Assembly (NCBI GenBank): GCA_001782235.1
Contig: MFOC01000003.1
Coordinates: 47,851-111,850, forward strand
Direction: 5' to 3'
DNA from: Candidatus Levybacteria bacterium RIFCSPHIGHO2_02_FULL_40_18
GTDB lineage: Bacteria; Patescibacteriota; Microgenomatia; Levybacterales; GWA1-39-11
Length of the DNA: 64,000 nt
The notes under the pieces were generated by a model that was given only the letters and a program-made list of their open reading frames with translations, ran no database searches and was not told the origin of the DNA. Both the position numbers and the translations under genes were made by a program. This document shows positions 6,485 through 61,793 of this stretch, in pieces; position 1 is the stretch's first letter; every line of letters begins with the position of its first letter.

Positions 6485-6500
6485 CAAGGAGGAAGCTAAC

Positions 6501-6620: not shown

Positions 6621-6660
6621 ACCGTCCCGGGGGGCCATCGACTACTGGAAACTGGCACGG

Positions 6661-39710: not shown

Positions 39711-39716
39711 AACTAG

Positions 39717-44308: not shown

Positions 44309-44309
44309 T

Positions 44310-45065: not shown

Positions 45066-46396
45066 AAAAAGGGATGGGGAATATTATTCAGCTTTTCCTC
45101 TGTCTTGGGCTTGTATCCCATTTTTTCGGGAGAATCAAACAATCTCATTTTGCCAAAATATTTATACCGTTCATCCAGATAAATAGGTTGTAATTCGGGC
45201 GAAACTACCTTAACCACGTGGACTGGATAATCTTTAAATATTGAACTTGTAATTTCTGCGAAGTAGAAATTTACTCCTTTATCTTTTAGGATTTTGGCGA
45301 TTTTATATAAGCTCTCTTGTGCTTCTGTAGTTCTAGAATTGAGTTTGATATTAATTAAATCGCTATTAAGCCAGAAATTTAGATTTTTAATCATTTGTGG
45401 AGAAAACCAATAATATGCTCTGTCCTCTATGGTTCTGATGTCACTTCTTGATTTGTACCTTTTTAGGTTTCTACCAAGAATGACTTTGTCCCTGGTCCAT
45501 GATCTTGTCATCAAGGACTCTTCTATAGCTCCTACTATTACGTTTCTTTTGTCTAGCCCTGCCTTTAAACCAACTGATATTGACGGACCCAATCCTGTTC
45601 TATCTATAATTATTGCACAGACTGAAAAAATTGATAAATCATTGGTAATATTAATCAAATAAACTTCGAGTTGGTACCTTTCTATTTTATTAATAATATC
45701 ATTAATATATAAATCCCTAATACAATTAAGATTTATTCTTCTGCACGGAATTTTATTGAGGTATGCTACCATGAATGAATCTCTTTCGATTAACTCACAA
45801 ATTCCTCTATATATCGCTGTTTCTAGAGTGTCAGCACATGCAGCTCCTGAAGATGTTCCAAATTGAAGCATAGGCTCCATTCTCTCCCATTTATAAGGTA
45901 CATAAATTAATTGCGCTGGCAACAAAAAGTTATTTCCAATAAAAACATTTTTTGATTCGACCCATGAGTAATTTGCATATAAATATTCTTCTTTTTTTAA
46001 TTTTAATCTTTTGATTTGGGGATCTGAGAAAGATAAAAACAAGAGAGGACTAAGCATTTTACTTTTCTCATATTTCTTATTTTTTATAAGAGGTCTCTCT
46101 CTGTCATCTGAAAGAGAAAATCTCTCTATTAATTCGCCAAATAGCTTTTGCAATGCAGATGTTTGTGAAAATGATGTTCCACTAGCAATAGCATCTTCTG
46201 TTCCCTTATTCTTTCTCTCTTTAAATGAAGTATTATATTGAAAAATTTTAGGCTCATCATTATAAAAAGGGGCTCTATGAAAACCATGGAATATATGAGG
46301 ATATTTTTTAAGGAGATCAAAACCTATATCAATTATATCTTGTGAGTTTTTACCCATAAAGGAATACTTAAGCCTGTTTTGGGGCAGATAATCCAA
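45062..46396 (-). CDS. YcaO-domain protein (ATP-dependent cyclodehydratase or amide-activating enzyme)
   Basis: ASGTSFSQTSALQKLFGELIERFS and FGTSSGAACADTLETAIYRGICELIERDSFMVAYLNK (ATP-binding E-x2-ER motifs). Ends ...NIPHPFL. Translationally coupled to the downstream dehydrogenase (4-nt overlap). Confidence 0.8.
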   Translation of the reverse strand: MDYLPQNRLKYSFMGKNSQDIIDIGFDLLKKYPHIFHGFHRAPFYNDEPKIFQYNTSFKERKNKGTEDAIASGTSFSQTSALQKLFGELIERFSLSDDRERPLIKNKKYEKSKMLSPLLFLSFSDPQIKRLKLKKEEYLYANYSWVESKNVFIGNNFLLPAQLIYVPYKWERMEPMLQFGTSSGAACADTLETAIYRGICELIERDSFMVAYLNKIPCRRINLNCIRDLYINDIINKIERYQLEVYLINITNDLSIFSVCAIIIDRTGLGPSISVGLKAGLDKRNVIVGAIEESLMTRSWTRDKVILGRNLKRYKSRSDIRTIEDRAYYWFSPQMIKNLNFWLNSDLINIKLNSRTTEAQESLYKIAKILKDKGVNFYFAEITSSIFKDYPVHVVKVVSPELQPIYLDERYKYFGKMRLFDSPEKMGYKPKTEEKLNNIPHPFL

Positions 46397-46404
46397 GCGT
46401 TATT

Positions 46405-46620
46405 TTATTTACCTTCTCGTATCTCAACGGTTATTCTGCAACGTTGAGTGCAATGTCCAGGAACAGGAGAACGACAAGGACCGGGAGGGGGATTAGGAGG
46501 AAGCGGCGGCGGAGTTCCGCATCTCGAAACCATAGATTCTCCTTTCAATTCACTTGGAAGCCCTGATGTGAATTCCTTCGCATCAGCAATGACTCTTTCA
46601 ACTGTCTCTATATTTGACAT
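46405..46620 (-). CDS. Candidate RiPP precursor peptide (71 aa) with a Pro/Cys-rich C-terminal core
   Basis: MSNIETVERVIADAKEFTSGLPSELKGESMVS | RCGTPPPLPPNPPPGPCRSPVPGHCTQRCRITVEIREGK. Near-consensus SD (taAGGAGGTGAtaacta ATG). Ends 9 nt upstream of the YcaO start. Confidence 0.5.
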   Translation of the reverse strand: MSNIETVERVIADAKEFTSGLPSELKGESMVSRCGTPPPLPPNPPPGPCRSPVPGHCTQRCRITVEIREGK

Positions 46621-47618: not shown

Positions 47619-48260
47619 TCACTCTAATTTTCCCTTCATATAGGTTTCGACCTCTTGTTTCAAGGTCGAAGTAATTTGTTCGTAAGAGTAATTTTCTCCT
47701 ATAAATTCTATCGGCGTTTGTTCAAGGTCTTCAAAATATACGAGTTGCTCAAGAAATTGAACCTCAACAAAAAAACTACCGCATTTTTTTACTGCGAATT
47801 TTACTATATCGTCAAGTGTCAACAGTCTCTTTTTTAGAACAACAAAAATATCAACATAATCGCGCCAGGTTGCTCGTCTTCCGATGGTGTACGCTTTGTC
47901 AGCTGCTATATCCTTTACACTTGCTAAAGCAAGGTACGGTGTTTCTACTCGCGGGAACGCGGGTTTGAAATCCTGCACAACAAATGTTATGCCAATATTG
48001 CTTTTAAGAATAGTAAAGGTTACTTGCTCGGAAGTATTCCATTTGTAGATAACTTTCCCGAATTTCTCCCTTATTTTATTTTCTAATGATTTTTTAATTG
48101 GATCGTCTACAAATATATCAAAGTCATAAGAAGTTCGATGCCCTATTTGAAGTGCAAGGGCGGTTCCGCCGGCAAGATATCCTTCATCTCGGAAGTCTAC
48201 TAGCTTCTTTAATATCTCTCTGCGGTCATGGTCTAATATCTCGAGGAATATTTTTGACAT
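47619..48260 (-). CDS. Nucleotidyltransferase, AbiEii/AbiGii toxin family (DUF1814)
   Basis: RREILKKLVDFRDEGYLAGGTALALQIGHRTSYDFDIFV is the conserved AbiEii N-terminal block. Confidence 0.6.
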   Translation of the reverse strand: MSKIFLEILDHDRREILKKLVDFRDEGYLAGGTALALQIGHRTSYDFDIFVDDPIKKSLENKIREKFGKVIYKWNTSEQVTFTILKSNIGITFVVQDFKPAFPRVETPYLALASVKDIAADKAYTIGRRATWRDYVDIFVVLKKRLLTLDDIVKFAVKKCGSFFVEVQFLEQLVYFEDLEQTPIEFIGENYSYEQITSTLKQEVETYMKGKLE

Positions 48261-49591: not shown

Positions 49592-49792
49592 ATGGGACAA
49601 CAACTCATATTTTTAAAACGAGCTAACAAAATCTTAAACAGGACTTTTGTATCGATTATTCTTGTAATCTTCTATATCCTAATTATTGGAATTGCAAGAG
49701 TTATTTACACAATTTCGCAAAACAAAAGCGCAAGACAAACCACTTACTGGCAGGAGTCAAAAAAGCGTATAAACCTTGCCTCCGCGTACTAA
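49592..49792 (+). CDS. Small membrane protein upstream of the carbamoyltransferase (hypothetical)
   Basis: One TM helix FVSIILVIFYILIIGIARVIY. The stop overlaps the next start. Confidence 0.25.
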   Translation: MGQQLIFLKRANKILNRTFVSIILVIFYILIIGIARVIYTISQNKSARQTTYWQESKKRINLASAY

Positions 49793-51479
49793 TATGTATA
49801 TTTTGGGTATTTCTTCCTATTACCATGATAGCGCGGCGGCGCTTTTAAAAGACGGCAAAATTGTTGCGGCGGCTGAGGAGGAGCGCTTTACCAGAATAAA
49901 ACATGACAATTCTTTCCCCTCAAAAGCTATAGATTTTTGTCTTAAGAATGCGGGGATATCAAAAATCGATTTAGAGTACGTTGCTTATTATGAAAAGCCA
50001 TTGCTTAAGTTTGAACGTATACTCGAGACTTTTGTTGCAACATGGCCTTTTTCCCTCAAGCCTTTTATTAAAGCCATACAGGAGTGGCTTGGCGAGAAAA
50101 TAAAAGTTGAGCAAAAGATTAGAAAAAAGCTTGACTTTAAAGGCAAAATATACTTTGTCCCACATCACCTGTCTCACGCAGCTGCCGCTTTTTATCCCTC
50201 ACCTTTTAAAAAGTCGGCAATATTAACGGTAGACGGCGTTGGCGAATACCAAACTATAGGAATCTGGAAAGGAATGGGAAATAAAATAAAACCAATAAAG
50301 GAAATTAACTTCCCTCATTCTCTTGGGCTCTTATACTCAACTTTTACAGCATTTTTAGGATTTCGCGTGAATGATGATGAATACAAAGTTATGGGGATGG
50401 CAGCATACGGTAAGCCTTCCTTTAAAAACAGTATCTATGAATTAATTGATATAAAAGATGACGGTAGTCTTCAGCTCGATTTGTCATATTTTGGATATCG
50501 AGAGTCTTTTCAAATGTGGAATAAGAAGTTTGAGCAATTATTTGGAGAGCCGCGAAACTTAAAAGCACCAATAACACAGCGCCACAAAGACATAGCAGCA
50601 AGTATTCAAACCGTGACAGAGGAAATATATTTTAAGATCTTAAAAAACTTATATTTAACTTCGAAAATCAATAATTTATGTATTGGCGGAGGAGTTGCTC
50701 TTAACGCCCTTGCTAACGGCAAAATCTATAAAAATACGCCTTTCAAAAAGGTTTTCATACTTGGACCCTCAGGTGACAGCGGTGGAGCAGTGGGAAGCGC
50801 GCTTGAAGTCTACAATAGGCTCTCTAAAAAGGCAAAAAGACGCTTTATAACTCATTTAAAATTTGGCTCGAAATATAAAGATAACGAAATTGAAATGATT
50901 CTTAAAGCAAAAAAATTAACATATAAGAAGTGTTCCTCCAAAACGCTTATCAAAAAAACGGCTAAATTACTTTCAGAAGGCAGAATTATTGGATGGTTTC
51001 AGGACAGGATGGAGTTTGGACCAAGGGCGCTAGGCAGTCGATCCATTCTTTCTGCTCCCTTCCCCTTCTCCATGAAGGAAGAGGTTAATGTTGTCAAAAG
51101 AAGGGAACAATTTAGACCTTTTGCAGGTTCAATATTGTTAGAAAAAGCGGTTAATTACTTTAAAATCCCAAAAACCCAAAACGAATTCCCGTTTATGAAC
51201 TTTTGTTTTCCTGTTCGAGAAATAAAAATAAAAGATATTCCAGCAATAACGCATGAGGACAGAACCTGCCGCATTCAAACTGTAAGTAAAAACGATGGTG
51301 CTTATTATTCTTTGATTAGGGAATTCGAAAGGTTAACCAGCATTCCCGTTATACTCAATACAAGTTTTAATCTTCGCGGCGAACCAATAGTTGAGAATCC
51401 CGAACAAGCAATTAATGACTATACAAAGACAAAAATTGATTCTCTTGTAATAGGCAGTTTTATCGTGTATAAGAAATGA
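49776..51479 (+). CDS. Carbamoyltransferase (NodU/CmcH/NovN family)
   Basis: MYILGISSYYHDSAAALLKDGKIVAAAEEERFTRIKHD. HHLSHAAAAF. C-terminal YrdC-like domain. Confidence 0.85.
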   Translation: MPPRTNMYILGISSYYHDSAAALLKDGKIVAAAEEERFTRIKHDNSFPSKAIDFCLKNAGISKIDLEYVAYYEKPLLKFERILETFVATWPFSLKPFIKAIQEWLGEKIKVEQKIRKKLDFKGKIYFVPHHLSHAAAAFYPSPFKKSAILTVDGVGEYQTIGIWKGMGNKIKPIKEINFPHSLGLLYSTFTAFLGFRVNDDEYKVMGMAAYGKPSFKNSIYELIDIKDDGSLQLDLSYFGYRESFQMWNKKFEQLFGEPRNLKAPITQRHKDIAASIQTVTEEIYFKILKNLYLTSKINNLCIGGGVALNALANGKIYKNTPFKKVFILGPSGDSGGAVGSALEVYNRLSKKAKRRFITHLKFGSKYKDNEIEMILKAKKLTYKKCSSKTLIKKTAKLLSEGRIIGWFQDRMEFGPRALGSRSILSAPFPFSMKEEVNVVKRREQFRPFAGSILLEKAVNYFKIPKTQNEFPFMNFCFPVREIKIKDIPAITHEDRTCRIQTVSKNDGAYYSLIREFERLTSIPVILNTSFNLRGEPIVENPEQAINDYTKTKIDSLVIGSFIVYKK

Positions 51480-51483
51480 CAGG

Positions 51484-52077
51484 ATGCCCTATCTTCTTCA
51501 AAGAATTATTGCTCTTTTCTTTCTACTATTATCCACGCCACTTCTTGTACTGCTCTTTTTAGCCGTTAAATGGGATTCAAGTGGGCCTTTTATTTTTAAG
51601 CAAAAACGCGCAGGAAAGAACAAAAAACCTTTTACTATGTACAAGATTCGGACAATGGTTGAAGGGGCTGAAAAGCTTCAATCGAGGTACGCGAAACTAA
51701 ATGAAGCAAGCGGGCCGGTTTTTAAAATTCGAAATGATCCGCGCTACACAAGGGTCGGAAAAATCTTAGCTCGAATCGCAATCGATGAACTCCCTCAGCT
51801 TTGGAATGTGGTCAAGGGTGAAATGGCGCTTGTCGGACCCCGCCCCCTTCCTTTATACGAGGCGAACAAAGTTCCGAAGAAATTCGAACAAAGGTTCTCA
51901 GTTCTTCCCGGAATGACCTCACCTTGGATCATTAAGGGTGGTCATGGTTTGAAATTCGATCAATGGATGAAGCTCGATTTGGAGTATGTAAAGAAAAAAT
52001 CCCTTTTATTTGAGCTTAAAATTCTTGCGCAGACAGCATTATTAATAATAAGGGTCGCAATGAATTCGGGGCGATGA
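51484..52077 (+). CDS. Bacterial sugar transferase (polyprenyl-phosphate glycosyl-1-phosphate transferase, small WbaP C-terminal type)
   Basis: PFIFKQKRAGKNKKPFTMYKIRTM...GPVFKIRNDPRYTRVGKILARIAIDELPQLWNVVKGEMALVGPRPLP. Confidence 0.8.
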   Translation: MPYLLQRIIALFFLLLSTPLLVLLFLAVKWDSSGPFIFKQKRAGKNKKPFTMYKIRTMVEGAEKLQSRYAKLNEASGPVFKIRNDPRYTRVGKILARIAIDELPQLWNVVKGEMALVGPRPLPLYEANKVPKKFEQRFSVLPGMTSPWIIKGGHGLKFDQWMKLDLEYVKKKSLLFELKILAQTALLIIRVAMNSGR

Positions 52078-52087
52078 GACTTAGTTT

Positions 52088-52492
52088 CTAATTTTTCTTA
52101 TCTTCAAGCGGCGAAATATCTATCGATTGTTTTTGGTAAGAAAGTGCTACATCAAAATGATCAAAGAATCCTTTTTGGCCTAAGATACCATGCCCAAATT
52201 CACTTATCTCTGCAAAAATTACTTTGGCTACATAAGTCTTGTCACTTATTCTTATTTCTATCTCTCCCCAGAAACCCTTAACTTGCTTCTTGCCTACTCC
52301 GACAAACAGAATTCTATCCTTTTTTGATAGAGTTAAACCTAGTTTCTTGGCAATTTCTAAACTGAAAATGCAATAGTCAGCGCCGGAATCTATCAAGCCA
52401 GAATATAAAATAACGGTTGTAGAAGATTTAATAATTATGGGAATAATAGGTCTTCTAATTTTTGAAGTAATCTCAAGATATGAAAAAGTCAT
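52088..52492 (-). CDS. Retropepsin-like (clan AA) aspartyl protease
   Basis: LIDSGADYCIF contains the D-S-G-A active-site signature. About 130 aa. Confidence 0.5.
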   Translation of the reverse strand: MTFSYLEITSKIRRPIIPIIIKSSTTVILYSGLIDSGADYCIFSLEIAKKLGLTLSKKDRILFVGVGKKQVKGFWGEIEIRISDKTYVAKVIFAEISEFGHGILGQKGFFDHFDVALSYQKQSIDISPLEDKKN

Positions 52493-52740
52493 TTACTGAA
52501 AGCAAAGGGGCCAACTATGGGGAGGACCTTCTTTGGTATCTGAGTCACCAGAGGCAGATCAAAACCCTTTTCTTTTGCCTTTTTTAAAACTTCATCGAGA
52601 GTTTTGGATGAGGCAACAACCTTATTACTATTTGGTCCCGCCAAAGCTACCCACTTACCTTTATAATCTCTATACACTTTTTTCATGTCAACCGTTTTCA
52701 TGTTTAATTTTATTATAGCAGACACTTTACTTCCGTTCAA
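52489..52740 (-). CDS. DUF5678-like small protein paired with the retropepsin-like protease
   Basis: YKGKWVALAGPNSNKVVASSKTLDEVLKKAKEKG pattern. 4-nt overlap with the downstream protease. Confidence 0.35.
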   Translation of the reverse strand: MNGSKVSAIIKLNMKTVDMKKVYRDYKGKWVALAGPNSNKVVASSKTLDEVLKKAKEKGFDLPLVTQIPKKVLPIVGPFAFSK

Positions 52741-52868: not shown

Positions 52869-53672
52869 ATGGATGAAATTTACGTAAATATAGCCGATTT
52901 CAATATACTAATCAAAATCCAGCCGCAGGAAACTACCAACAATCCGCCTTACGATTTCATCAGAAACAGACTGTTAACCGATTTGGTTTCTTATTTAGGT
53001 CAATTTATAATTTTAGAAAAGCCTGGAAAAGTTGATTTTGAAATTAATTTTATTGAAGCATGGAACTTACAAATACTGCGAGTCAAAAGTGACAATATCA
53101 GTTACATTCCTCTTTATGAAGAAATTTCGTCGTCTAAGTTTTTAACCTATTTTTTAAACAGCATCTATCAATTCCAGTTAATCTTAAAATACGCTGTCCA
53201 TGAACTTTTGGACAAATCCAGTGGGTTTTTAATCCACTCTTCCGCCGTCAAAATCAACAACAAGGCTTACTTCTTCTTAGGCAAGTCTGCGGCTGGTAAA
53301 TCGACCATTGCCACAATGCTTGCTGACAGATACCCAAAAATCGCAGATGATACAAGTCTTGTTAAAAAAGAGGGTAATCAATTTTTTTTCTACCAAACTC
53401 CATTTTTTGACAAAAATTGGGTCAATAAACACTCCGAGAGATTAAAAATGGGCAAAATGTTTTTTTTAAAAAAAGCCAATTTCTTTAAAGTAGAGAAAAT
53501 CGAAGATAAAGAGCAAATTCTCAACTATTTCTTGAAGGGTTATGTCGTTAACCTCAACAAAATCTCAACCAAAAATGTACTAAAATTTGTCAATAAATTC
53601 GACAACTTCTACATGCTTTACTTTGCAAAAAACCCGGAGAAAACAATAAGACTAATTGAATCCCTTAAATGA
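52869..53672 (+). CDS. HPr-kinase/phosphorylase-like P-loop protein (the RiPP-associated HprK-like kinase type)
   Basis: FLGKSAAGKSTIATMLADR P-loop in the C-terminal half. 267 aa. Overlaps the start of the PqqD-like gene. Confidence 0.4.
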   Translation: MDEIYVNIADFNILIKIQPQETTNNPPYDFIRNRLLTDLVSYLGQFIILEKPGKVDFEINFIEAWNLQILRVKSDNISYIPLYEEISSSKFLTYFLNSIYQFQLILKYAVHELLDKSSGFLIHSSAVKINNKAYFFLGKSAAGKSTIATMLADRYPKIADDTSLVKKEGNQFFFYQTPFFDKNWVNKHSERLKMGKMFFLKKANFFKVEKIEDKEQILNYFLKGYVVNLNKISTKNVLKFVNKFDNFYMLYFAKNPEKTIRLIESLK

Positions 53673-53920
53673 TCAAACTCAAAAAAGGCATAGTCTCTCA
53701 AAAAGTCGGTCAAAAAACCACCATTTTTGACGGCGAGAAGTCAGTTCTTTATACTTTTAACGAAACGGCATCATTCATATTTGACCAGCTCAAAAAAGAG
53801 GCAAAATTGGAAAAAATTGTAGATTTGATGGCAAAAAAATTTAATGTCAAAAAAGAGACTGCAAAAAACGACGTTGAAGAATTTGTCAAAACCTTAAAAG
53901 CTAAAAAAATTGTTTCCTAG
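53669..53920 (+). CDS. PqqD-family protein, RiPP recognition element (RRE)
   Basis: LYTFNETASFIFDQLKKEAKLEKIVDLMAKKFNVKKETAKNDVEEFVKTLKAKKIV matches the PqqD fold pattern (L..N.TA..IW..L.G..T..EI...L...Y.V..E.A..DV..F...L). Confidence 0.55.
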   Translation: MIKLKKGIVSQKVGQKTTIFDGEKSVLYTFNETASFIFDQLKKEAKLEKIVDLMAKKFNVKKETAKNDVEEFVKTLKAKKIVS

Positions 53921-55362
53921 TAGCCGATTGACCTAAGATCACCTGCGCTGTCATCTTCGGTAGAAAACTGTCCGGGTACTTCATTGCTCTTCCATTCAAT
54001 TGGCAGGTTGTAATCGGAAAGATATTCTAAAAGGTCATCCCGGAGTTTTCCCAGTTCCTTTGTCCTTTCGCCGGCCAAATTTTTTGTCTCGTTGGGATCG
54101 GCCACAAGGTCATACAGCTCTTCGTGCCAACTTTCAAGAAGACAGGACTGCGGCAAGGAATAGATATACTTTAAATTGTCCCTGACAATTGCAAACTTGG
54201 AAAAATAGCTGTTGGCAAAAATAGCCCTTTTTCTGGGCGCCGGTATTATTTTGGAGAATTTACCGAATTGTCCTGCAAAACTCTTTCCGTCGAAACTGCC
54301 CTTTTTATAATCAATGCCCAGAAAATCCAAAATGGTCGGCAAAATGTCAACATCTTGTATCAAAACGTCTGATTTTTCCCCCGATCTGCCCTTGGCTGGA
54401 TCAAAAATTATAAGCGGAATCTTGATCGATGAATCGTAAAGAACCTGCCTGTGGTTGAAATAATAGTTGTGATCAAATCCTTCTCCGTGGTCGCCGTATA
54501 AAACCACCAGGGTGTTTTTATCAAGACCCAGCTCTTTAAGATTATCCAAAATTTTACCTACCAGTCTGTCGGCCGCAGCAACCTCGCCATCGTAAAGAGC
54601 CTCCATAAGCTCTATCCTGTCTTGAGGAACCGGATTATTTTGGCAGGATTGATACTGGGCCCGAAGTTCTTCAAGTTCCTCAAGGTTTTTGCCAGAAATT
54701 TCATCGCAGAATTTACTGTTAAATTTGCACCTCAAACCCCCGGGGGCAAAGTAGGGTGCGTGGGGATCGACAAGATGCACCCAGAGAAAAAACCGCCCTC
54801 CATCCTTGCTGCTTTTCAAAATGTCGGCAGAACTTAAAATAAATTTCTCGTAATCTGCCCTTTCGGTCATAGTAAACCTTTCGTTATATTCCGCCTTTGC
54901 GCCATTGTAGTAAAACGATTTGAACTCATGGGTATTGAATACCTCAAACCCCTGATCCAAAGCACTGCCGATGGTGGAATAACCCGCGGTAAAAAACCCG
55001 TTTTGGGCAAGAATACTTGTCAAAGTTTTGTTGTTCTCACTGACCAGAAGACCTGAATTTGAAATAATTCTGGTCTTTGCCGGATCCTTGCCGGTAAAAA
55101 GAGCCGCCATCGAAGGATGAGTCATGGGAACGGCTGTAGCGGCGTTGGTAAAGACTGCTGCGCTTTTTGCCCACTTGTCAATATTGGGAGTCGTATCTTT
55201 TCCATAGCCATATACGCCCATATGGTCAGGGCGTAGGGTATCAATTGAAATTAGAAGAAGATTTTTAGGGTGAGTTGGGGTAAATACGAATTTCCAAACG
55301 AGAGCGAGAAACAAAAAAAGTGTTGAATATATTACTATCCGCCTAAATTTAACTTTGAGCAT
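53917..55362 (-). CDS. Sulfatase-like (PF00884) exported hydrolase or transferase, paralogue of 29481..30899
   Basis: LLISIDTLRPDHMGVYGYGKDTTPNIDKWAKSAAVFTNA. YGDHGEGF. The nucleophile region reads ATAVPMTHPSMAALFTG, with Thr where sulfatases have the formylglycine Cys. Confidence 0.7.
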   Translation of the reverse strand: MLKVKFRRIVIYSTLFLFLALVWKFVFTPTHPKNLLLISIDTLRPDHMGVYGYGKDTTPNIDKWAKSAAVFTNAATAVPMTHPSMAALFTGKDPAKTRIISNSGLLVSENNKTLTSILAQNGFFTAGYSTIGSALDQGFEVFNTHEFKSFYYNGAKAEYNERFTMTERADYEKFILSSADILKSSKDGGRFFLWVHLVDPHAPYFAPGGLRCKFNSKFCDEISGKNLEELEELRAQYQSCQNNPVPQDRIELMEALYDGEVAAADRLVGKILDNLKELGLDKNTLVVLYGDHGEGFDHNYYFNHRQVLYDSSIKIPLIIFDPAKGRSGEKSDVLIQDVDILPTILDFLGIDYKKGSFDGKSFAGQFGKFSKIIPAPRKRAIFANSYFSKFAIVRDNLKYIYSLPQSCLLESWHEELYDLVADPNETKNLAGERTKELGKLRDDLLEYLSDYNLPIEWKSNEVPGQFSTEDDSAGDLRSIGY

Positions 55363-55366
55363 AAAT

Positions 55367-56620
55367 TTATCTTACCATCTTTATGCTTTTTACGCGATTT
55401 AAGAAAACCCAAATTATCGTATAAATCACCTGTTTGTCTAAAAAAACCATTACCTTTCTAAAAAAGGGCTCCGGCGATAAATAGAATAAATTTTTAAAAC
55501 GCTCAATTCCCGAATTAATCCTTTGTTCTTCATCAAATATATTTAGCTTATAAAGCATTTTTCGAACTCTGGCAAAACTGCTATCAGGTCTAATGTCATT
55601 CAGAAAATCACGATCAAAATTTAGTCCGTAGTATTTTTGCAAGATAAGAAAAACAGGATATATGAAATTCATAAGCTTATATTCTTTAGCGAGTTTTGCA
55701 ATTTTAGAAAAATTTTGTTGTTCTTTTGAAATAATGCTCTTCATAAAATCATATCTATAAGCCCCTTTAAAATTATGATGGTAAAGATGAAGGGCTAGAT
55801 AAATTAATAAGTTTTCAGAAGAAAGAATTGGAAATTTATGACTCCAAACACTAACATCTCTTTTTTCTCTTAGAAATTTTCCACTTAAACTATTCAAAAG
55901 ACTCTGCGGGTAAAGAGCATTAAGTTCCCCAAGTTGTGTCATCATAAATACAACCTCAAGATGAATATCGAAAAAGATTGGAAATCCTTTAACTATTTTC
56001 AAGAAATTAACTTCCGGACTTTTATTTTTAAGTCTTCCCAGAGTCTCGGACAATGATGAGTCGAATTCTTTGAAGCCTAATTTTCGTAAAATCGTCTTTG
56101 CGCGAGAAAAAAATTTTGGGCTAATTAAAATGTCGCAGTCGGCATAAATGCGTCTCGGGTGCTTGCCCTCATGGTAAAGGTGGAGAGGCAGACCTTTGAG
56201 AAAAACGAATTTTATTCCTGTCTTCTCAAGCGTTCTTTTAACTTTTACTATTTCGCCAAAATATAGTGTTGATTGAATAAGATAAAGGTCGTCGATGCTA
56301 AATTCGTTCCTTCCCCTTTTTATTTTATATACAACACCGATTACGTTTTTTGGGTAAATCTTCCCATCGGAAGTTTGATTATTCTCCCCTTTTGTTATTA
56401 AGTACTTATCTGTTTTGTAAACCACTCTGTGGGTGAAGATCCTGTCGCCCTGCCTGCCGGCAGGCAGGCCTTTTCGCACGCAGACAATATCATTAACGGC
56501 AATTCTGTCAAATCGTTTTTTTGCAAGATAAACGACGTCGCCGTCCCAAAGTAGCGGGAACATACTCTCACCGTAAGTCTTAAACGCAGAAATCTTTGAA
56601 ATATTTGCAACCTTAATCAC
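55367..56620 (-). CDS. Fusion protein: N-terminal S24/S26-type peptidase-like domain plus an uncharacterised nucleotidyltransferase (PF14907-like) domain
   Basis: N-terminus YGESMFPLLWDGDVVYL is LexA/signal-peptidase-like (GxSMxP). The remaining ~300 aa resemble the uncharacterised nucleotidyltransferase family found in RiPP clusters. Confidence 0.4.
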   Translation of the reverse strand: MIKVANISKISAFKTYGESMFPLLWDGDVVYLAKKRFDRIAVNDIVCVRKGLPAGRQGDRIFTHRVVYKTDKYLITKGENNQTSDGKIYPKNVIGVVYKIKRGRNEFSIDDLYLIQSTLYFGEIVKVKRTLEKTGIKFVFLKGLPLHLYHEGKHPRRIYADCDILISPKFFSRAKTILRKLGFKEFDSSLSETLGRLKNKSPEVNFLKIVKGFPIFFDIHLEVVFMMTQLGELNALYPQSLLNSLSGKFLREKRDVSVWSHKFPILSSENLLIYLALHLYHHNFKGAYRYDFMKSIISKEQQNFSKIAKLAKEYKLMNFIYPVFLILQKYYGLNFDRDFLNDIRPDSSFARVRKMLYKLNIFDEEQRINSGIERFKNLFYLSPEPFFRKVMVFLDKQVIYTIIWVFLNRVKSIKMVR

Positions 56621-56687
56621 TAAGATATTTTAACACGCAGGCAAGCCCGTAATTGTTTCATGTTGTACTAAAGTCTTAAAGAAAAAT

Positions 56688-56891
56688 CTAGGAGGCACTA
56701 TTGGTCATAAGGCACAGAGCACAGGTGGTAGAACCACATGAGGCACAGGTGATAAGAGTGTTACATGAACCTTGCGCATACACAGACGATCCGAAGAGTT
56801 CTTCCGCTGAATCGATAAACCTGCTACTTAAAAAGAAGTTTATCTTGACTCTTTGCTCTTTTATCGCAGGCTTGCTGTATTTTTTTTTCAT
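56688..56891 (-). CDS. Candidate RiPP precursor peptide (67 aa) with a Cys/Ser/Thr-rich core
   Basis: MKKKYSKPAIKEQRVKINFFLSSRFIDSAEELFGSSVYA | QGSCNTLITCASCGSTTCALCLMTNSAS. The start overlaps the stop of the upstream 168-aa gene (ATGA). Confidence 0.55.
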   Translation of the reverse strand: MKKKYSKPAIKEQRVKINFFLSSRFIDSAEELFGSSVYAQGSCNTLITCASCGSTTCALCLMTNSAS

Positions 56892-57394
56892 AGTTTTATT
56901 ATCTCTATTTCAAGTCTATTGTATGATGGATCGGCAAACAAGTCAATTGTTTCCTCTATTATCAACTCATCTCCCGGCTTAAGGTCTGAAAAAATCATGG
57001 GAATATTCACTCCAAGTATTTTTTTATATATTTTAAGGGCTTCAAGATCCGTTTTTCTAAAAAGCATATAGATGCCAGAGCCGCTCTTGCCGCCAACAGG
57101 ACTAATGAATAAACCCTTTTCATACTCTAATCTCCCTTTTATTCCCGGAGTGCCTAATGCTTCCTTAACTATTCCTCTGTATTCACTTTTCACAACTGAC
57201 GAGGCTAAAATATCCTTATTGGCATTGAGGTAATTAAGAACACTGTAATTAATATCGCTTGATGAGACTCTACTGACTTGATTTTGCCGTGCGGCTTCCT
57301 TAGATGAGGGTTGATAGAGAAATAAATATCCAACTTCTATTATAGTAAGTATAAAAAGCGTGATTGAGACAGCAATTATAATTCTTGTTAACAC
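56888..57394 (-). CDS. Membrane-anchored hypothetical protein (168 aa) in the YcaO locus
   Basis: N-terminal TM RIIIAVSITLFILTIIEVGYLFLY. No recognisable domain. Confidence 0.4.
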   Translation of the reverse strand: MLTRIIIAVSITLFILTIIEVGYLFLYQPSSKEAARQNQVSRVSSSDINYSVLNYLNANKDILASSVVKSEYRGIVKEALGTPGIKGRLEYEKGLFISPVGGKSGSGIYMLFRKTDLEALKIYKKILGVNIPMIFSDLKPGDELIIEETIDLFADPSYNRLEIEIIKL

Positions 57395-57429
57395 GTTGAT
57401 TCCAGTTTAGGACTTAGCGACTCTTGGTG

Positions 57430-58209
57430 TCAATGGCCTCCGGCTTTATTTCCAACACCAAGCATGTAAACCACGGTTTCATCAAGGCCGTCAACGTCAA
57501 GCAATCTATTTACATTATCGTCCATATATCCGCCCACGCCGCAAATTCCTAAACCTAGTGCACTTGCGAGTAAATAAAAGTTCTGCGCCAAATGTCCCGC
57601 CTCCACCAAAACGTGTCGGTACCCTCTGTCCCCATATTTTATGGTATTTCTTTTAAAAATTGCGGTAATTATTATCAAACATCCTGCGTTTTTTGCAAAG
57701 GGAACCGATGTAAGCAATTTTAGATTTTTTTTCTTAAAATCAGTCAGCTTTTCAAGACTGTTCGTCTTAACATAATAGTGGTACACACCTTTTGGCAAAT
57801 CCATATTTAAAGATAAGATATAAACTTCAAGCGGGAAACGTGCGCCACCTGAGGGATAAAATCTTCTTTGGGCAAAATCCGAATTTTTGTTAAGTCCTGC
57901 GCTGTAGTATAAAAAGCTATTCAATTCCCCAAGACCTATCGGCTCTTTTGAAAATTCACGTGTCGATTTTCTATCTCTAAGCGCTTGCGCAAACGTAACT
58001 CTTTTGCTAAATGTGGGTTTTGGGAGTCTTATTTCTTCAAATCTGGCATATCCCTTATAGTAAATTGTCCCCCATTCCTTGGGCCAAGATGGCCTGGGCA
58101 GATTTCTGGCCAGTTTTTTAATCTTGGTTTTTGAGTGGAATTTCTCAAACTCGGCAGTGGGCTTTCCCAGAAGGCCGGCGATATTCTTTACACGTGTGGT
58201 TTTTTTCAT
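57430..58209 (-). CDS. SagB-type (nitroreductase-fold) dehydrogenase
   Basis: ARFPLEVYILSLNMDLPKGVYHYYVKTNSLEKL...YRHVLVEAGHLAQNFYLLASALGLGICGVGGY. Confidence 0.75.
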   Translation of the reverse strand: MKKTTRVKNIAGLLGKPTAEFEKFHSKTKIKKLARNLPRPSWPKEWGTIYYKGYARFEEIRLPKPTFSKRVTFAQALRDRKSTREFSKEPIGLGELNSFLYYSAGLNKNSDFAQRRFYPSGGARFPLEVYILSLNMDLPKGVYHYYVKTNSLEKLTDFKKKNLKLLTSVPFAKNAGCLIIITAIFKRNTIKYGDRGYRHVLVEAGHLAQNFYLLASALGLGICGVGGYMDDNVNRLLDVDGLDETVVYMLGVGNKAGGH

Positions 58210-59480
58210 AAAAACGGATGAGGTATCGGATTCGGCCCCTCGTATTTTTTGCCGAAAAAGTCAGCTATCTCTCTGAGTCTTTTTGGGTTGATAACACGGC
58301 CTTTTTCAACCTCTCTCAAGTACAGCGGCTGAAGCTGGGGCATAACGACCTTATATGCCCAAAAGCCCAGCTGCTTAAATATTCCCGGTGTGATATCGAC
58401 AGCATATAAATCAAGACTATGACTTTTAAGAATACTTATAGCCAAATCTAGCTCTGCCTTTTTTGATTGTCCACCAAAGCTTTTGGGCATATGATGAGAT
58501 TTTGAGCTGGAAAGAAGAAATTGGATGTATTTTAAAGTTTTGGGATAGATCCAATACGCCGCTCTTTCGGAAAAAACATCGGTTCCTTTGAGGTTATCCC
58601 CAACTAGAATGGAACCGTTTTTCAGCATCCGCTTTACAAAATTTCTGACCATAAAAGACTCTCCTATTGCGCCCAGAACTGCGTCAATTTGGGAAAACCC
58701 TGCCTTTGCGCCCGCAGACACCGCGGGACCAAAACCGCTTCTGTCAATTAAAACTGCACAATAAACGGGAATGCCAAGATCGCAGGTAATATCTAAAACA
58801 TAAAGCTCAAGTTTATATCTGGCGCACTTTTCCAAAACCAATTTGACAGCTTTATTGCCCAAAGCTTCAAGGTCAACTTTTGGGGGGGTAATTTTGTTAA
58901 GATAGATTGTCATAAAACTATCTCTTTCTATTACTTCGTAGATGCCATTTAGTAGCGCCTGCTCCCTGCTTCTTCCAATTGCACCCCCTGTGCTAATGCT
59001 TGGAAAGTCTAAAAGCGGTTCCCCTTTGTTATTTCTTAAGAAGTGAAGGAAGATTAATTGTGCAGGTATATAACACTTCTTGCCGGTCATCAAATTTACT
59101 GCCCCAACCCAGCCAAATTTTCTATCTATCAGTTCTGGCCTTTTTGTAAAAATTGTCGGATTGACGAAAAACCTAGGATTATCGCTGAATCTGCCATATC
59201 TTATCGAGTCTTGACTATAGGCATCGAGGCAGAACCTCTCCATTGCCTCAAATAAAGACTTAAAAAGCGCGTCTTTGGGAGAATTGATTGAAAAGCCCAA
59301 ACCGGAAAAGAAAGCACTGCCGACAATGAGTTTTTTTTTGTGCCTCCTGCCTATTTTAAATACGCATTGATAATTAAGGAATTTAGGCTCATCATAGAAC
59401 TCAGCAACTCGTGTTATTTGGGGGCTAAGTTCCAATTCATTAAGTTTATCAAGTATCGAATAAAAGTCCGAAAGCTTCAT
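58206..59480 (-). CDS. YcaO-domain protein (second copy)
   Basis: STGGAIGRSREQALLNGIYEVIERDSFMTIYLNK. GPNPIPHPFL C-terminus. 4-nt overlap with the dehydrogenase. Confidence 0.8.
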   Translation of the reverse strand: MKLSDFYSILDKLNELELSPQITRVAEFYDEPKFLNYQCVFKIGRRHKKKLIVGSAFFSGLGFSINSPKDALFKSLFEAMERFCLDAYSQDSIRYGRFSDNPRFFVNPTIFTKRPELIDRKFGWVGAVNLMTGKKCYIPAQLIFLHFLRNNKGEPLLDFPSISTGGAIGRSREQALLNGIYEVIERDSFMTIYLNKITPPKVDLEALGNKAVKLVLEKCARYKLELYVLDITCDLGIPVYCAVLIDRSGFGPAVSAGAKAGFSQIDAVLGAIGESFMVRNFVKRMLKNGSILVGDNLKGTDVFSERAAYWIYPKTLKYIQFLLSSSKSHHMPKSFGGQSKKAELDLAISILKSHSLDLYAVDITPGIFKQLGFWAYKVVMPQLQPLYLREVEKGRVINPKRLREIADFFGKKYEGPNPIPHPFL

Positions 59481-59716: not shown

Positions 59717-60142
59717 TCATTCTAAACTCCTCAGGTACTGCAAAAATTGCGCAGGCCTCATAGTTATAATGTTTAAATCTTCTTTTATCTTATCGGTGTT
59801 GAAATCTTTTTGATTATAAGTGATGAGAAATTTAGCTTTTGACTTATATGCTCCCGCTACGATATGCGCGTCATTTGAATCTTCAACAAAGTTATTATAT
59901 TTTTCCCTTATTTTCTTAAGTGAACTTTTAATCTCAATCTTTAAGAATCTTCTCTCAATAAGCTCTTTCAGGTCTTGCTCTTTTATATTCAGTTCTTTTG
60001 ACACCCTTTTTAACTCCTCCAAAGATATATTTGAAATAAAACGATTGGCACCGCTTTTATGAATAAGGGAATAGGCAGCGCCTGTTTTTGACAGAAGAGA
60101 AGAAATTACAACATCTGAATCAATAAAGACTGTTGGGGTCAT
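59717..60142 (-). CDS. PIN-domain (VapC-like) putative toxin
   Basis: N-terminal VFIDSDVVISSLL with the conserved Asp. About 140 aa. Confidence 0.55.
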   Translation of the reverse strand: MTPTVFIDSDVVISSLLSKTGAAYSLIHKSGANRFISNISLEELKRVSKELNIKEQDLKELIERRFLKIEIKSSLKKIREKYNNFVEDSNDAHIVAGAYKSKAKFLITYNQKDFNTDKIKEDLNIITMRPAQFLQYLRSLE

Positions 60143-60146
60143 TTAT

Positions 60147-60410
60147 TTAAGCCGCCCGGGCTTTTTTAAGATATTGCCGCACGCGCGGTATAACTTTCAT
60201 GTCTTCTTGTTCTTTAGAAAATAAATCATAGTCAAGCCCTGTGATCATAAATGATACGGAACTTGCGGGAATTCTATACACACGGCCAAGTTTTTTAGCA
60301 ACAATCTCCCCTCGAGCGATAAGCTCATAAACCGTATTTTTTGATAATTGAAGGGCCTCGGCAATTTGTTCGGGGGTATACATTTTTACAATATTAGCAT
60401 TACTTATCAT
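60147..60410 (-). CDS. HTH (excisionase/MerR-type) DNA-binding protein. Putative antitoxin of the PIN protein.
   Basis: YTPEQIAEALQLSKNTVYELIARGEIVAKKLGRVYRI. 4-nt gap to the downstream PIN gene. Confidence 0.5.
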   Translation of the reverse strand: MISNANIVKMYTPEQIAEALQLSKNTVYELIARGEIVAKKLGRVYRIPASSVSFMITGLDYDLFSKEQEDMKVIPRVRQYLKKARAA

Positions 60411-60464: not shown

Positions 60465-61793
60465 TTACCTGGGGTAAAGTTTGCCAAGGATTTGATGCAG
60501 GTTATATGTAAACTTATTAAAAGCAGGCGCTATTCTTTGAGGCCATTTGATTTCATCCTCCCCGTAGCGTCTGCTTTTAAAGAGGAAATTGTTGGGAAAC
60601 GCACCGGTTTGTTTTGTGGTATATGGACTTACAATGTCCCATACAACCTCACCTTTGTTGGTTACTTCGAATATATGTCCCCTAGTCCCGTCAGTGATTA
60701 GCGTATTTCCATTTGAAAGTCTTTGCGCGCCCCCTACGATTGGCGCATAAAATTTAATTTTGTCAATTGGCCCCTCTCCTGCATCAAACTGCCATACAAC
60801 TTTGTTTGTTTTGGGGTTCACTTCAACTGCCCTTGATCCGAAACTCGGAAATGGCGCCGGGAGCCTATCATACCCGTTATCAAATACAAGAATGTTTCCG
60901 TTTTCAAGCAATGTCGGGTCATGCTGAAGGCTGAACATTCCTTTTGGAGATCGCCAGATTATTCCCCCGTCTTCTTTTCGAATTATATAAACAGTACTAG
61001 TTGTCCGCATGCTTAAAAGATACGCAGGTGTGCCATCGATAGGATTTTTTTCCATATACTTCAACCCGTTAGTGTAGGTCCATCCGTACCGAGGCAGAAG
61101 CGGGGCAATTACGTCCATTTGCGGATCCATATGCTCATATGAGTGCCAAGACCAAACAGTCTCTCCTTTTCGATTTATCTCGACTATATTATCCGACCAA
61201 ATGAGACCGCCTTCCCCGCCGGGCCGGAGACCCTCTGGGCCGGAGGCCATCTCTGTACCATCAACGCCACCTTGAATTTGCCTTGCGATCTCAGGTGGTG
61301 TTTTCTCCCAGAGAGCAAAAGCAAGGTTTCCGTTAGGCAGTATTGCGACATCATGATGCATTGCCTCATTCTTATATTCCCAAACCACATTCGATTTCCA
61401 GTCAAGTTCTTGAATAATTCCGGTATTGCCTCCCGGAGGGAAAAACTGGCTATATTTTGGCTGCTCCATTACCGAGAGTAATTTCCCGTCAGGCTCAAGA
61501 ACCGAGTACAGAACCTGATGATTGGTTGTCCATGTATGTACGGGGTAGCCCGCCATATCGAGTAAATAAACTTTGCCCTCGATTTTTGAATCGCTTAAAA
61601 GACGGTTATATGGAGAAATTAACGTGTAGCCCGGAAAGACCTTTTCCTCATCGAGAATCGGCAGTGATTTAAAGATGCTGTATGAATTGTCTATGGGTTT
61701 GAAAACGAATATGAAAGTCAGTATGTAAACTGCGCCTAAAATCAATAGAATATAAAGAAGTTTTTGAGGAGGATTAAAACCTTTGTTTTCCAC
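60465..61793 (-). CDS. Membrane-anchored beta-propeller protein, arylsulfotransferase (ASST)-like. It carries an in-frame GC-rich insert.
   Basis: N-terminal TM. Repeated hydrophobic-Gly blades (NGNILVFDNGYDR, NGNTLITDGTRGHIFEVTNKGEVVWD). Insert EMASGPEGLRPGGEGG at 61217-61252. Confidence 0.4.
   Translation of the reverse strand: MENKGFNPPQKLLYILLILGAVYILTFIFVFKPIDNSYSIFKSLPILDEEKVFPGYTLISPYNRLLSDSKIEGKVYLLDMAGYPVHTWTTNHQVLYSVLEPDGKLLSVMEQPKYSQFFPPGGNTGIIQELDWKSNVVWEYKNEAMHHDVAILPNGNLAFALWEKTPPEIARQIQGGVDGTEMASGPEGLRPGGEGGLIWSDNIVEINRKGETVWSWHSYEHMDPQMDVIAPLLPRYGWTYTNGLKYMEKNPIDGTPAYLLSMRTTSTVYIIRKEDGGIIWRSPKGMFSLQHDPTLLENGNILVFDNGYDRLPAPFPSFGSRAVEVNPKTNKVVWQFDAGEGPIDKIKFYAPIVGGAQRLSNGNTLITDGTRGHIFEVTNKGEVVWDIVSPYTTKQTGAFPNNFLFKSRRYGEDEIKWPQRIAPAFNKFTYNLHQILGKLYPR
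61217..61252. repeat. Third copy of the gggccggagRc x2 GC-rich in-frame mini-element
   Basis: ccgccgggccggagaccctctgggccggaggccatc. Confidence 0.6.

Follow-up and report, generated by a model that had tools for sequence, protein, structure and literature searches.

Why would a bacterium with a small genome place azole-forming enzymes next to a peptide kinase, a recognition element and a nucleotidyltransferase, and do these genes serve one peptide or two? The question arises from a locus of Candidatus Levybacteria, a groundwater bacterium, within a 64-kb stretch of DNA (hereafter the window). An initial annotation, made from the sequence alone, assigned positions 52869-59480 to a hybrid RiPP locus of a combination not recognized as a described class. 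We found this observation to be real: the eight ORFs lie where they had been placed, and the family assignments hold except for one peptidase domain. The locus is best read as a functional biosynthetic cluster for a ribosomal peptide, in which a recognition, phosphorylation and cleavage module of the type found in linear polyphosphorylated peptides (LPPs) is joined to azole-forming machinery, a reading in which we have moderate confidence. The two toolkits have so far been described only separately, and the predicted product, a small peptide with both azole rings and phosphate groups, has not been tested experimentally.

Gene content of the locus

The azole-forming half is encoded on the minus strand. 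The 424-residue YcaO cyclodehydratase (58206-59480, -) scores 160 bits against PF02624 and 184 bits against TIGR03604, the latter below its cut-off of 219, and its ATP-binding ExxER motifs and C-terminal IPHPFL are conserved in 27 homologues. It belongs to the ScmC-associated YcaO clade described below. It is followed by a SagB-type FMN dehydrogenase (57430-58209, -), which overlaps the YcaO stop by 4 nt and scores 144.4 bits against TIGR03605 (cut-off 78.4) and 87 bits against PF00881. As previously noted, the canonical partner of YcaO is missing: no E1-like, ThiF or Ocin-ThiF gene was found among the called genes within 10 kb, nor among the recurrent neighbour clusters of the 83 related loci that we compiled. 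As YcaO also scores below the TIGR03604 cut-off, its activity or chemistry could differ from the usual. Downstream lies a 168-residue N-terminally membrane-anchored protein of unknown function (56888-57394, -) without any Pfam or NCBIfam hit, and then the 67-residue precursor (56688-56891, -), the start of which overlaps the upstream stop (ATGA). A promoter-like site at 56946-56918 is supported by weak evidence only.

The remaining genes form the kinase half and its accessories. The fusion protein (55367-56620, -) has an N-terminal domain (about residues 1-110) and a PF14907 nucleotidyltransferase domain (about residues 116-417), the latter scoring 76.9 bits over residues 116-332 against a cut-off of 31.2. 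[quoted passage not shown] Its Ser (GxSMxP), His (THR[VI][VI]Y) and Asp (TKGDxN..SDG) motifs, as well as the DxD and D-x-H motifs of the nucleotidyltransferase, are conserved in 13 fusions, and the GTG start is needed to include the catalytic Ser19. The membrane-anchored sulfatase-fold enzyme of the alkaline-phosphatase superfamily (53917-55362, -; PF00884, 165.8 bits) has Thr81 aligned to the Cys nucleophile, as initially reported, and Met85 in place of the Arg of the CxxxR motif, a pattern conserved in all 6 homologues; it is an accessory of one subclade. On the plus strand, the discrete 83-residue PqqD-type RiPP recognition element (RRE; 53669-53920, +) scores 57.9 bits against PF05402; its nearest NCBIfam models are lasso B1 chaperones, and its best solved relative is the lasso B1 protein TbiB1 (E=0.0017). 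It overlaps by 4 nt the stop of a ScmC-family (PF27840) P-loop protein (52869-53672, +), the "HPrK-like" protein of the initial annotation, which has a PEPCK/HPr-kinase fold by structure prediction and is the putative peptide Ser kinase, an analogue of LppK and the lasso K proteins. ScmC scores below the curated cut-offs of the HPrK models and of TIGR04249, and was not compared directly with the sequence of the LPP kinase LppK.

Co-inheritance and the precursor family

To assess whether this neighbourhood is a matter of chance, we examined the 83 loci; individual loci are given here by L numbers. In 22 species-level loci of candidate phyla radiation (CPR) bacteria, YcaO, SagB, ScmC, usually PqqD and the S26::nucleotidyltransferase fusion travel together in shuffled gene orders around one precursor family. 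ScmC is present in 22 of 22 loci of one YcaO clade and in 0 of the 61 others, the nucleotidyltransferase is in 12 and PqqD in most, whereas SagB is adjacent to YcaO in 76 of 83 loci. ScmC is inserted between the precursor and SagB in L013-L015, and is co-directional with YcaO or SagB in L021, L055 and L074. The fusion protein itself is widespread, with 210 cluster representatives at E<=1e-30, mostly full length. The 168-residue protein is a recurrent accessory, with weak homologues (E 1e-9 to 5e-3) in L012, L013, L014, L015, L021, L028 and L035, and its gene also lies directly upstream of the precursor in L012, L021 and L035.

The precursor belongs to a family found by HMM in 17 loci, always beside cassette genes. 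Fourteen of 15 compiled members carry a YxxPx[ILV] leader motif (YSKPAI at residues 5-10 in the window), and leader identity is 42% against 11% for the hypervariable Cys/Ser/Thr/Gly-rich cores. In the window, VYA|QGS marks the leader/core junction. The C-terminal Ser is not conserved, and by analogy to LPPs a Ser near the core N-terminus (AQGS) is the likelier kinase site; however, no Ser position is strictly conserved in the cores, and as these are S/T-rich, the AQxS resemblance could be chance.

The sister YcaO clade occurs in a different cassette, found at 43034-46620 of the window and in 22 other loci. It shares a partner-less YcaO of the same lineage, a SagB dehydrogenase, a Cys-rich precursor and the same phyla, but has an M16 peptidase and a DAKEF-type leader, and lacks an RRE, ScmC and the nucleotidyltransferase. 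None of its 31 candidate ORFs has YxxP, and no DAKEF-type precursor occurs in ScmC-positive loci.

These data bear on two alternative readings. First, two independent pathways might merely sit side by side, as LPP clusters sit beside lasso clusters in Bacilli while remaining separate, and in the window the kinase/RRE pair is indeed on the strand opposite to the YcaO operon. We consider this most unlikely, because each locus has only one precursor family, which carries both the LPP-type leader and the azole-type Cys-rich core, the genes are interleaved in many orders, and the ScmC-linked YcaOs form one clade, retained down to about 27-30% identity. Second, ScmC might not be a tailoring kinase but, together with PqqD, an ATP-using adaptor that replaces the missing partner of YcaO, recruiting the leader and activating cyclodehydration to give a plain linear azole peptide. 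In line with this, ScmC is the gene most tightly tied to YcaO/SagB, no canonical partner is present, and second ScmC paralogues with a degenerate P-loop (L021, 9126-9911; L012, 6255-7070) suggest a structural or oligomeric role. By contrast, the sister cassettes have the same partner-less YcaO/SagB without ScmC or any RRE, so that these YcaOs do not need ScmC as such, and the kinase catalytic motifs are conserved in the primary copies. Moreover, the same ScmC/PqqD/SpI/nucleotidyltransferase module works with radical SAM (rSAM) enzymes and, in LPPs, alone, where the kinase does phosphorylate the peptide. This adaptor reading is thus unlikely, although less so than the first.

The initial annotation had named in advance what would overturn it, and none of these conditions was fulfilled where examined: the profile scores pass for SagB and PqqD, and for YcaO at the Pfam level; the small ORF is conserved; and the kinase/RRE genes and the YcaO genes are co-localized in the 22 loci and co-diversify. 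Its interpretation, one RiPP locus joining YcaO/SagB azole machinery to a kinase, RRE and nucleotidyltransferase set in an undescribed combination in a small-genome bacterium, is therefore supported, with the amendments given here.

Comparison with known peptide systems

The accessory set, initially likened to lasso-peptide accessories, equals the core of the LPP family, described in 2026 from lppA-K-B-S-D-N of Paenibacillus alginolyticus (Popov et al., Nat Commun 2026, PMC13381572); half of the system is thus a described kind. [quoted passage not shown] The core starts with AQS in LppA and with AQGS, AQSS or AQSG in several CPR members, and both kinds of cluster are embedded among polysaccharide and envelope genes. 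In LPPs, polyphosphorylation of a core Ser (Ser3) is the primary modification, and SpI cleavage depends on the RRE. There are also differences. YcaO and SagB are co-inherited here, the cores are Cys-rich, the peptidase and the NTP transferase form one polypeptide, extra Thr-nucleophile sulfatase-fold, sugar-phosphate transferase, Wzy_C and arylsulfotransferase genes occur in subsets, and the host belongs to CPR (Levybacteria and other Microgenomates), although LPPs were described as restricted to Bacillota; that paper mentions neither YcaO nor CPR. The rest of the LPP logo (LxHQxIxFET) is not matched in the CPR leaders, and the sequence relationship to LppS and LppN was likewise not tested directly. 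LPP clusters also include an MsbA-like export pump; a tblastn search with the exporter of L006 found no such homologue in the window, and among ScmC-positive loci it is present only in L006, L008 and L007/L009, the last two being one place.

Compared to linear azol(in)e peptides/TOMM, the locus shares a YcaO directly followed by a SagB-type dehydrogenase, and a Cys/Ser/Thr-rich core behind a leader. It differs in lacking the E1-like C protein and the Ocin-ThiF F protein, one of which is the partner that carries the RRE in those clusters, in leader recognition, which is apparently delegated to a discrete lasso-type RRE, in an S26 leader peptidase, and in having a kinase and a nucleotidyltransferase as core members.

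Phosphorylated and phosphoglycosylated lasso peptides (paeninodin, pseudomycoidin) resemble the locus in a B1-type RRE, a [Y/W]xxP leader, an HPr-kinase homologue acting on the linear precursor, and a PF14907-type nucleotidyltransferase that adds hexose to the phosphate and is sometimes fused to the leader peptidase (PMC8498205). However, neither an Asn-synthetase-like lasso cyclase nor a B2 transglutaminase-like peptidase was found in the annotated 21-kb neighbourhood or in the related loci, the C-terminal Ser targeted by those kinases is not conserved, and the fused peptidase is S26 rather than B2.

In addition, ScmC/PqqD cassettes with rSAM/SPASM enzymes (SynChlorMet-type; L089-L091) contain an S26-like peptidase, ScmC, PqqD, PF14907 and a small ORF with a YxxP leader, for example YEAPEILSQKVFET in L090, which matches the LPP logo. 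There, rSAM/SPASM takes the place of YcaO/SagB, the peptidase is a separate protein and PF14907 is full length. The module is therefore portable. The locus itself is not a SynChlorMet cassette, which combines ScmC and ScmD with two PqqE-like rSAM/SPASM enzymes: it scores 22 bits against a cut-off of 125 for ScmC (TIGR04249) and 21.5 against 100 for ScmD, and has no rSAM gene, the rSAM/SPASM gene at 40403-41869 lying 11 kb away beyond the second YcaO/SagB locus.

Proposed pathway and envelope-related genes

We propose that the PqqD RRE binds the precursor through YSKPAI, as inferred from LppB and the lasso B1 proteins. YcaO and SagB would then convert Cys, and perhaps Ser/Thr, of the core into thiazoles and (methyl)oxazoles by ATP-dependent cyclodehydration and dehydrogenation, as inferred from family membership; as no E1-like partner exists, the RRE probably also serves YcaO. 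The ScmC kinase would phosphorylate a Ser close to the core N-terminus, possibly several times, as LppK does on Ser3 of a core that starts with AQS. The S26 domain would remove the leader with the help of the RRE, as LppS does, and the fused PF14907 domain would add a further group to the phosphate, which is hexose in pseudomycoidin and unknown in LPPs, where deletion of LppN had no effect. Our analysis demonstrates the gene content, folds, catalytic motifs, co-inheritance and precursor pattern, whereas every chemical step, whether azole, phosphate, NMP or sugar, is inferred; neither phosphorylation nor azol(in)e rings were measured here, no product has been observed, and expression in the organism is not known. 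Alternatively, phosphorylation might be transient, with elimination giving dehydro-amino acids that are attacked by Cys to form thioether (lanthionine-like) rings alongside the azoles. The cores are rich in both Ser/Thr and Cys, phosphorylation followed by elimination is the route in class III/IV lanthipeptides, and azole plus dehydroalanine hybrids exist (goadsporin and the dehydrazoles). Nevertheless, no lyase or cyclase domain was found in the cassette or among the recurrent neighbour clusters, and LppK and the lasso K proteins, the nearest characterized kinases, leave stable mono- to tetra-phosphates on one Ser, which makes this route very unlikely.

In this subclade, membrane-anchored enzymes might then act on the phosphorylated peptide or link it to glycan chemistry outside the cytoplasm, which is speculative. 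These are the Thr-nucleophile phosphoesterase-like protein, the sugar-phosphate transferase with its carbamoyltransferase, and the arylsulfotransferase-like protein. In a bolder and improbable view, which the data nevertheless allow, the kinase and the nucleotidyltransferase build a nucleotide-activated phosphopeptide or phosphoglycosyl peptide, which the co-operonic sugar-phosphate transferase, a Wzy_C-type ligase and the LtaS/EptA-like Thr-nucleophile enzyme move onto a lipid carrier and on to the cell surface or a glycan. An azole-containing RiPP would then be exported and displayed by envelope-glycan machinery in an episymbiotic CPR bacterium, which would also explain why most of these loci lack a dedicated exporter, and would assign a role to the NTP transferase, still orphan in LPPs.

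The cluster probably extends beyond 52869-59480. A small polyprenyl-phosphate sugar-phosphate transferase (51484-52077, +; PF02397, Bac_transf) is a probable member, as it occurs in 7 ScmC-positive loci and in no ScmC-negative locus, and overlaps or abuts PqqD, the nucleotidyltransferase or ScmC in L008, L074 and L011. The sugar transferase, the sulfatase-fold gene (6 loci, all ScmC-positive), the arylsulfotransferase-like gene and Wzy_C occur only in subsets, and shared ancestry of the neighbourhood could explain part of the pattern of the first three. A carbamoyltransferase of NodU/CmcH type (49776-51479, +; PF02543 and PF16861), co-operonic with the sugar transferase, is a possible accessory that recurs in L008 and L021, and in L008 the order is carbamoyltransferase, Bac_transf and PqqD. 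Another possible accessory, an arylsulfotransferase-like protein with an N-terminal anchor (60465-61793, -; PF14269 and PF05935), is separated from YcaO by a PIN/HTH toxin-antitoxin pair and recurs in L013 and L064, which also carry the sulfatase-fold gene.

Family assignment and domain organization of the encoded proteins

All of the ORFs named in the initial annotation were found in the sequence at the positions it had assigned, and the observation it reported is real. Profile searches confirmed most of its family assignments, including those of YcaO, SagB and PqqD, whose scores had been chosen beforehand as a point on which the proposal could fail. YcaO matches PF02624 with 160 bits, whereas the narrower model TIGR03604 gives 184 bits, under its cut-off of 219. 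The SagB-type dehydrogenase matches TIGR03605 with 144 bits against a cut-off of 78. PqqD matches PF05402 with 57.9 bits, and its nearest NCBIfam models are lasso B1 chaperones. The nucleotidyltransferase matches PF14907 with 76.9 bits over residues 116-332 of the 417-aa protein, and the sulfatase-fold enzyme matches PF00884 with 165.8 bits. The ATGA stop/start overlap of the precursor with the upstream ORF is in the sequence, and no E1-like, ThiF or Ocin-ThiF gene lies within 10 kb. By contrast, an Rfam scan of the window returned no match, and a promoter and terminator scan yielded only weak consensus matches. The exact proteins recur on 75-141 kb contigs from Rifle aquifer metagenomes, and NCBI names the ScmC protein as coming from a Candidatus Levybacteria MAG. 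The host is a CPR/Patescibacteria organism, in agreement with the small-genome bacterium proposed in the initial annotation.

Two assignments needed further analysis. The N-terminal peptidase-like domain of the PF14907 protein (55367-56620), which had been described as S24-type, belongs to S26 and matches archaeal-type signal peptidase I (TIGR02228, E=9.6e-10). The Ser of GxSMxP, the His of THR[VI][VI]Y and the Asp of TKGDxN..SDG are kept in all 13 homologous fusions. Public gene calls often start this protein at the internal Met20, giving 398 aa instead of 417 aa and removing the catalytic Ser19 of the S26 domain, as seen for the window protein and for L001 12918-14114 (L numbers denote the loci compared in this study); about a fifth of the listed cluster representatives begin at that Met. 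In the sulfatase-fold protein, Thr81 is aligned with the Cys nucleophile of a solved sulfatase and Met85 with the motif Arg. The motif VPMT[HYI][PG]S and an N-terminal membrane anchor are conserved in all six homologues.

The P-loop protein ScmC, which the initial annotation had called HPr-kinase-like, could not be assigned by sequence alone. A homologue search with the single sequence gave only three hits, because the family diverges fast. Searches of the PDB with ScmC profiles returned mostly 22-residue matches to the P-loops of ABC transporters, and HPrK reached only E=0.27 and then 0.0017, which we judged insufficient without the fold search. An AlphaFold prediction from a three-sequence alignment had a pLDDT of 45 and was unusable, whereas an alignment of 27 sequences from the profile search gave a usable model, the basis for the predicted PEPCK/HPr-kinase fold. 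Several loci carry two ScmC paralogues, including L029, L034 and L040. The second copy can have a degenerate P-loop: that of L021 (9126-9911) lacks the P-loop and the His, and that of L012 (6255-7070) has GT in place of the Walker GK. This hints at a hetero-oligomer of an active and a pseudo-enzyme subunit.

Co-conservation of the cassette and of its precursor family

The three closest YcaO homologues on long contigs (43-46 % identity) all have YcaO, SagB, a small ORF, the PF14907 protein, PqqD and ScmC, with different flanking genes. We then scanned one genome per species (GTDB representatives) with a YcaO alignment, and scored the resulting 80 loci with HMMs built from the four cassette copies. 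Whether the kinase/RRE genes and the YcaO genes are co-localized in related genomes had been proposed in advance as a criterion, and ScmC sits next to YcaO/SagB in 19 of these loci, or in 22 counting the window and the loci from the individual look-ups. Nine loci have the complete set of ScmC, PqqD and the fusion, whereas others are cut by contig ends or lack the fusion. The gene order is extensively shuffled while the set stays together; ScmC lies between the precursor and SagB in L013-L015, and is co-directional with YcaO or SagB in L021, L055 and L074. Many of the third-party-assembled MAGs among L009-L064 that carry this CPR-type cassette are titled "uncultured Gammaproteobacteria", one locus is titled Bathyarchaeota and one Chloroflexia; these titles probably do not reflect the true taxonomy.

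An unbiased clustering of all neighbouring ORFs gave a clean dichotomy. The ScmC cluster occurs in 22 loci and an M16 peptidase cluster in 22 other loci, and the two never co-occur. In a neighbour-joining tree, all ScmC-linked YcaOs form one clade, sister to the M16-linked clade. The only non-ScmC members of that clade are L010 (a 3-kb contig), L052 (a truncated gene) and L039. The coupling is therefore ancient and has been retained down to about 27-30 % YcaO identity. Moreover, an exhaustive HMMER search with the fusion protein found 210 representatives of 50 %-identity clusters at E<=1e-30, most of which align over both domains, so the cassette is common in environmental data.

The 67-aa precursor (56688-56891) belongs to a family detected in 17 loci, always beside cassette genes, which answers the previously raised question of whether the small ORF is conserved. 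Fourteen of the 15 compiled members have YxxPx[ILV] at residues 5-11, followed by a basic, alternating-hydrophobic stretch (KKIKINFF) and an [RK]FxDS motif. After a [VILF]-x-A junction, the cores are hypervariable and rich in Cys, Ser, Thr and Gly; leader identity is 42 % against 11 % for the cores. The C-terminal Ser of the window peptide is not conserved, and for this reason phosphorylation of that residue in the manner of paeninodin was considered and rejected. Some precursors of the same leader family carry a very short Cys-rich core followed by a self-processing domain: L035 (2803-3375) and L029 (12527-13081) have PT-HINT (PF07591, 55 and 46 bits, respectively), and L040 (6650-7099) has Peptidase_S74 (63 bits), with further cases in L034 and L055. 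Most of the loci lacking the S26::NTP fusion are these, which suggests that the core C-terminus is released or activated autocatalytically.

The window also harbors a second, different YcaO/SagB cassette on the minus strand (43034-46620). It comprises a 71-aa precursor (46405-46620) with a DAKEF-type leader and a Cys/Pro-rich core, a YcaO (45062-46396), a SagB (44310-45065) and an M16 peptidase (43034-44308), with no RRE and no kinase. The same type occurs in 22 other species-level loci and is mutually exclusive with ScmC. These M16-type sister cassettes have a different precursor family, with a DAKEF-type leader and Cys/Pro-rich cores, and none of their 31 candidate ORFs has YxxP. The only Cys-rich precursor in the ScmC-type loci is therefore the one with the RRE-type leader, which argues that the azole enzymes and the kinase/RRE/peptidase set act on the same peptide.

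Comparison with the LPP module and proposed mechanism

Literature searches on YcaO with HPr kinase or nucleotidyltransferase, on RiPPs of CPR/Patescibacteria, on PF14907 and on follow-ups of the LPP work found no description of this combination, and nothing on CPR. A paper on dehydrazoles, considered as a possible precedent for a kinase together with YcaO, mentions a Ser/Thr-kinase homologue in only one cluster, and no RRE, PqqD or nucleotidyltransferase. The closest known system is that of the linear polyphosphorylated peptides (LPPs) of Bacillota (PMC13381572, May 2026), whose clusters are embedded in capsular polysaccharide loci. Their precursors carry YxxPxVLxHQxIxFETxxS. LppK puts one to four phosphates on Ser3 of a core that begins AQSNWK, LppS needs LppB and cleaves the unphosphorylated precursor poorly, and deletion of LppN had no visible effect. 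The paper calls LPPs restricted to Bacillota and does not mention YcaO, azoles or CPR. The window has four of the five core proteins and the leader motif, and several CPR cores begin AQGS, AQSS or AQSG. The nearest solved relative of the window RRE is a lasso B1 protein (TbiB1, E=0.0017); LppB (PDB 9x8z) did not appear in the PDB sequence search. A tblastn search of ScmC and of the fusion protein against annotated plasmids gave nothing useful, and the window proteins were thus not compared directly with LppK, LppS or LppN. In Firmicute lasso clusters, the HPrK homologue phosphorylates the linear precursor, and the nucleotidyltransferase adds hexose to that phosphate (pseudomycoidin) and is sometimes fused to the B2 leader peptidase (PMC8498205), an analogue of the S26::PF14907 fusion seen here.

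More distant ScmC family members, outside CPR, sit in cassettes with the order S26-like peptidase, ScmC, PqqD, rSAM/SPASM and PF14907 (L089 3790-10452; L090 7568-11586; L091 6867-10230). Their small ORFs bear YxxP leaders that are LPP-like, for example L090 YEAPEILSQKVFET, and one of these matches the LPP leader logo. In these cassettes the peptidase is a separate protein, so the fusion is so far specific to CPR. The SpI/kinase/RRE/NTP module is thus not confined to Bacillota, but is a portable unit that pairs with YcaO, with rSAM enzymes, with lasso cyclases, or with no additional core enzyme at all.

Our analysis demonstrates the gene content, folds, catalytic motifs, co-inheritance and leader/core pattern of the locus, whereas the following pathway is inferred. 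We propose that PqqD binds the YSKPAI leader, and that YcaO and SagB convert Cys, and possibly Ser/Thr, to azoles; with no E1-like partner present, they probably use the same RRE. In this view, ScmC would phosphorylate a Ser near the core N-terminus, the S26 domain would remove the leader in an RRE-dependent way, and the PF14907 domain would decorate the phosphate. The main alternative is that ScmC plus PqqD replace the missing YcaO partner rather than tailoring the peptide. This is weakened by three observations: the sister cassettes run the same partner-less YcaO without ScmC or any RRE, the kinase motifs are conserved, and the module functions without YcaO elsewhere.

Altogether, the interpretation given in the initial annotation, a hybrid RiPP locus joining YcaO/SagB with a kinase, RRE and nucleotidyltransferase set, is supported, with corrections. 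Both halves, the LAP/TOMM azole machinery and the LPP module, are already known, whereas their combination is uncharacterized. This would be the first pathway in which azole-forming YcaO/SagB chemistry is coupled to the recently discovered SpI/RRE/HprK-kinase/NTP-transferase module, and it predicts a peptide class carrying both azoles and (poly)phosphate or phosphoglycosyl groups. It also offers a natural case for asking how a partner-less YcaO recruits its substrate, possibly through a discrete lasso-type RRE. Almost no natural products are known from CPR bacteria, in which this experimentally tractable family is widespread, with about 200 fusion-protein clusters.

Extent of the cluster and neighbouring genes

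The limits set in the initial annotation (52869-59480) are probably too narrow. A small polyprenyl-phosphate sugar-phosphate transferase (PF02397; 51484-52077) occurs in 7 ScmC-type loci and in none of the 61 others, and overlaps or abuts PqqD, the fusion gene or ScmC in L008, L074 and L011. This tight operon coupling may help identify the missing partner or substrate of the orphan NTP transferase. In the window, the gene is separated from ScmC only by two small opposite-strand genes (52088-52740) that look like an insertion, namely a DUF5678 gene and an Asp_protease_2-like gene. Similar small, apparently mobile or defence-type genes interrupt the cluster elsewhere: a PIN/HTH_17 toxin-antitoxin pair (59717-60410) lies between YcaO and an arylsulfotransferase-like gene, and an AbiEii-family gene (47619-48260) lies upstream.

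Further genes recur in subsets of the loci. A carbamoyltransferase is found in the window, L008 and L021, and an arylsulfotransferase-like protein in the window, L013 and L064. A Wzy_C protein recurs in 9 ScmC-type loci, although its homologue in the window is 25 kb away. The sulfatase-fold enzyme recurs in 6 loci, and the 168-aa anchored protein (56888-57394) also recurs in subsets. The 168-aa protein and its homologues (L012-L015, L021, L028 and L035) form a family of roughly 170-240-aa N-terminally anchored proteins with a conserved C-terminal …[YF]EG.I…DLK.GD… region, which often occurs in two copies or directly upstream of the precursor; it has no family match and its function is unknown. 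By contrast, an MsbA-like exporter is absent from the whole window and from most ScmC-type loci. These facts fit extracytoplasmic processing of a phosphorylated peptide and, more speculatively, export through lipid-carrier glycan machinery, although shared ancestry of the neighbourhood may explain some of these co-occurrences.

In addition, a co-directional run on the plus strand (37246-41869) encodes an APH-type phosphotransferase, a weak GFO/IDH/MocA-type oxidoreductase, a 2-phosphosulfolactate-phosphatase-family protein and a 488-aa radical SAM/SPASM enzyme, and may be another biosynthetic locus. The GC-rich stretch at 6047-8590 (0.57, with strong AT skew) encodes secreted Thr/Pro/Ala-rich low-complexity proteins, which explains its anomalous composition.
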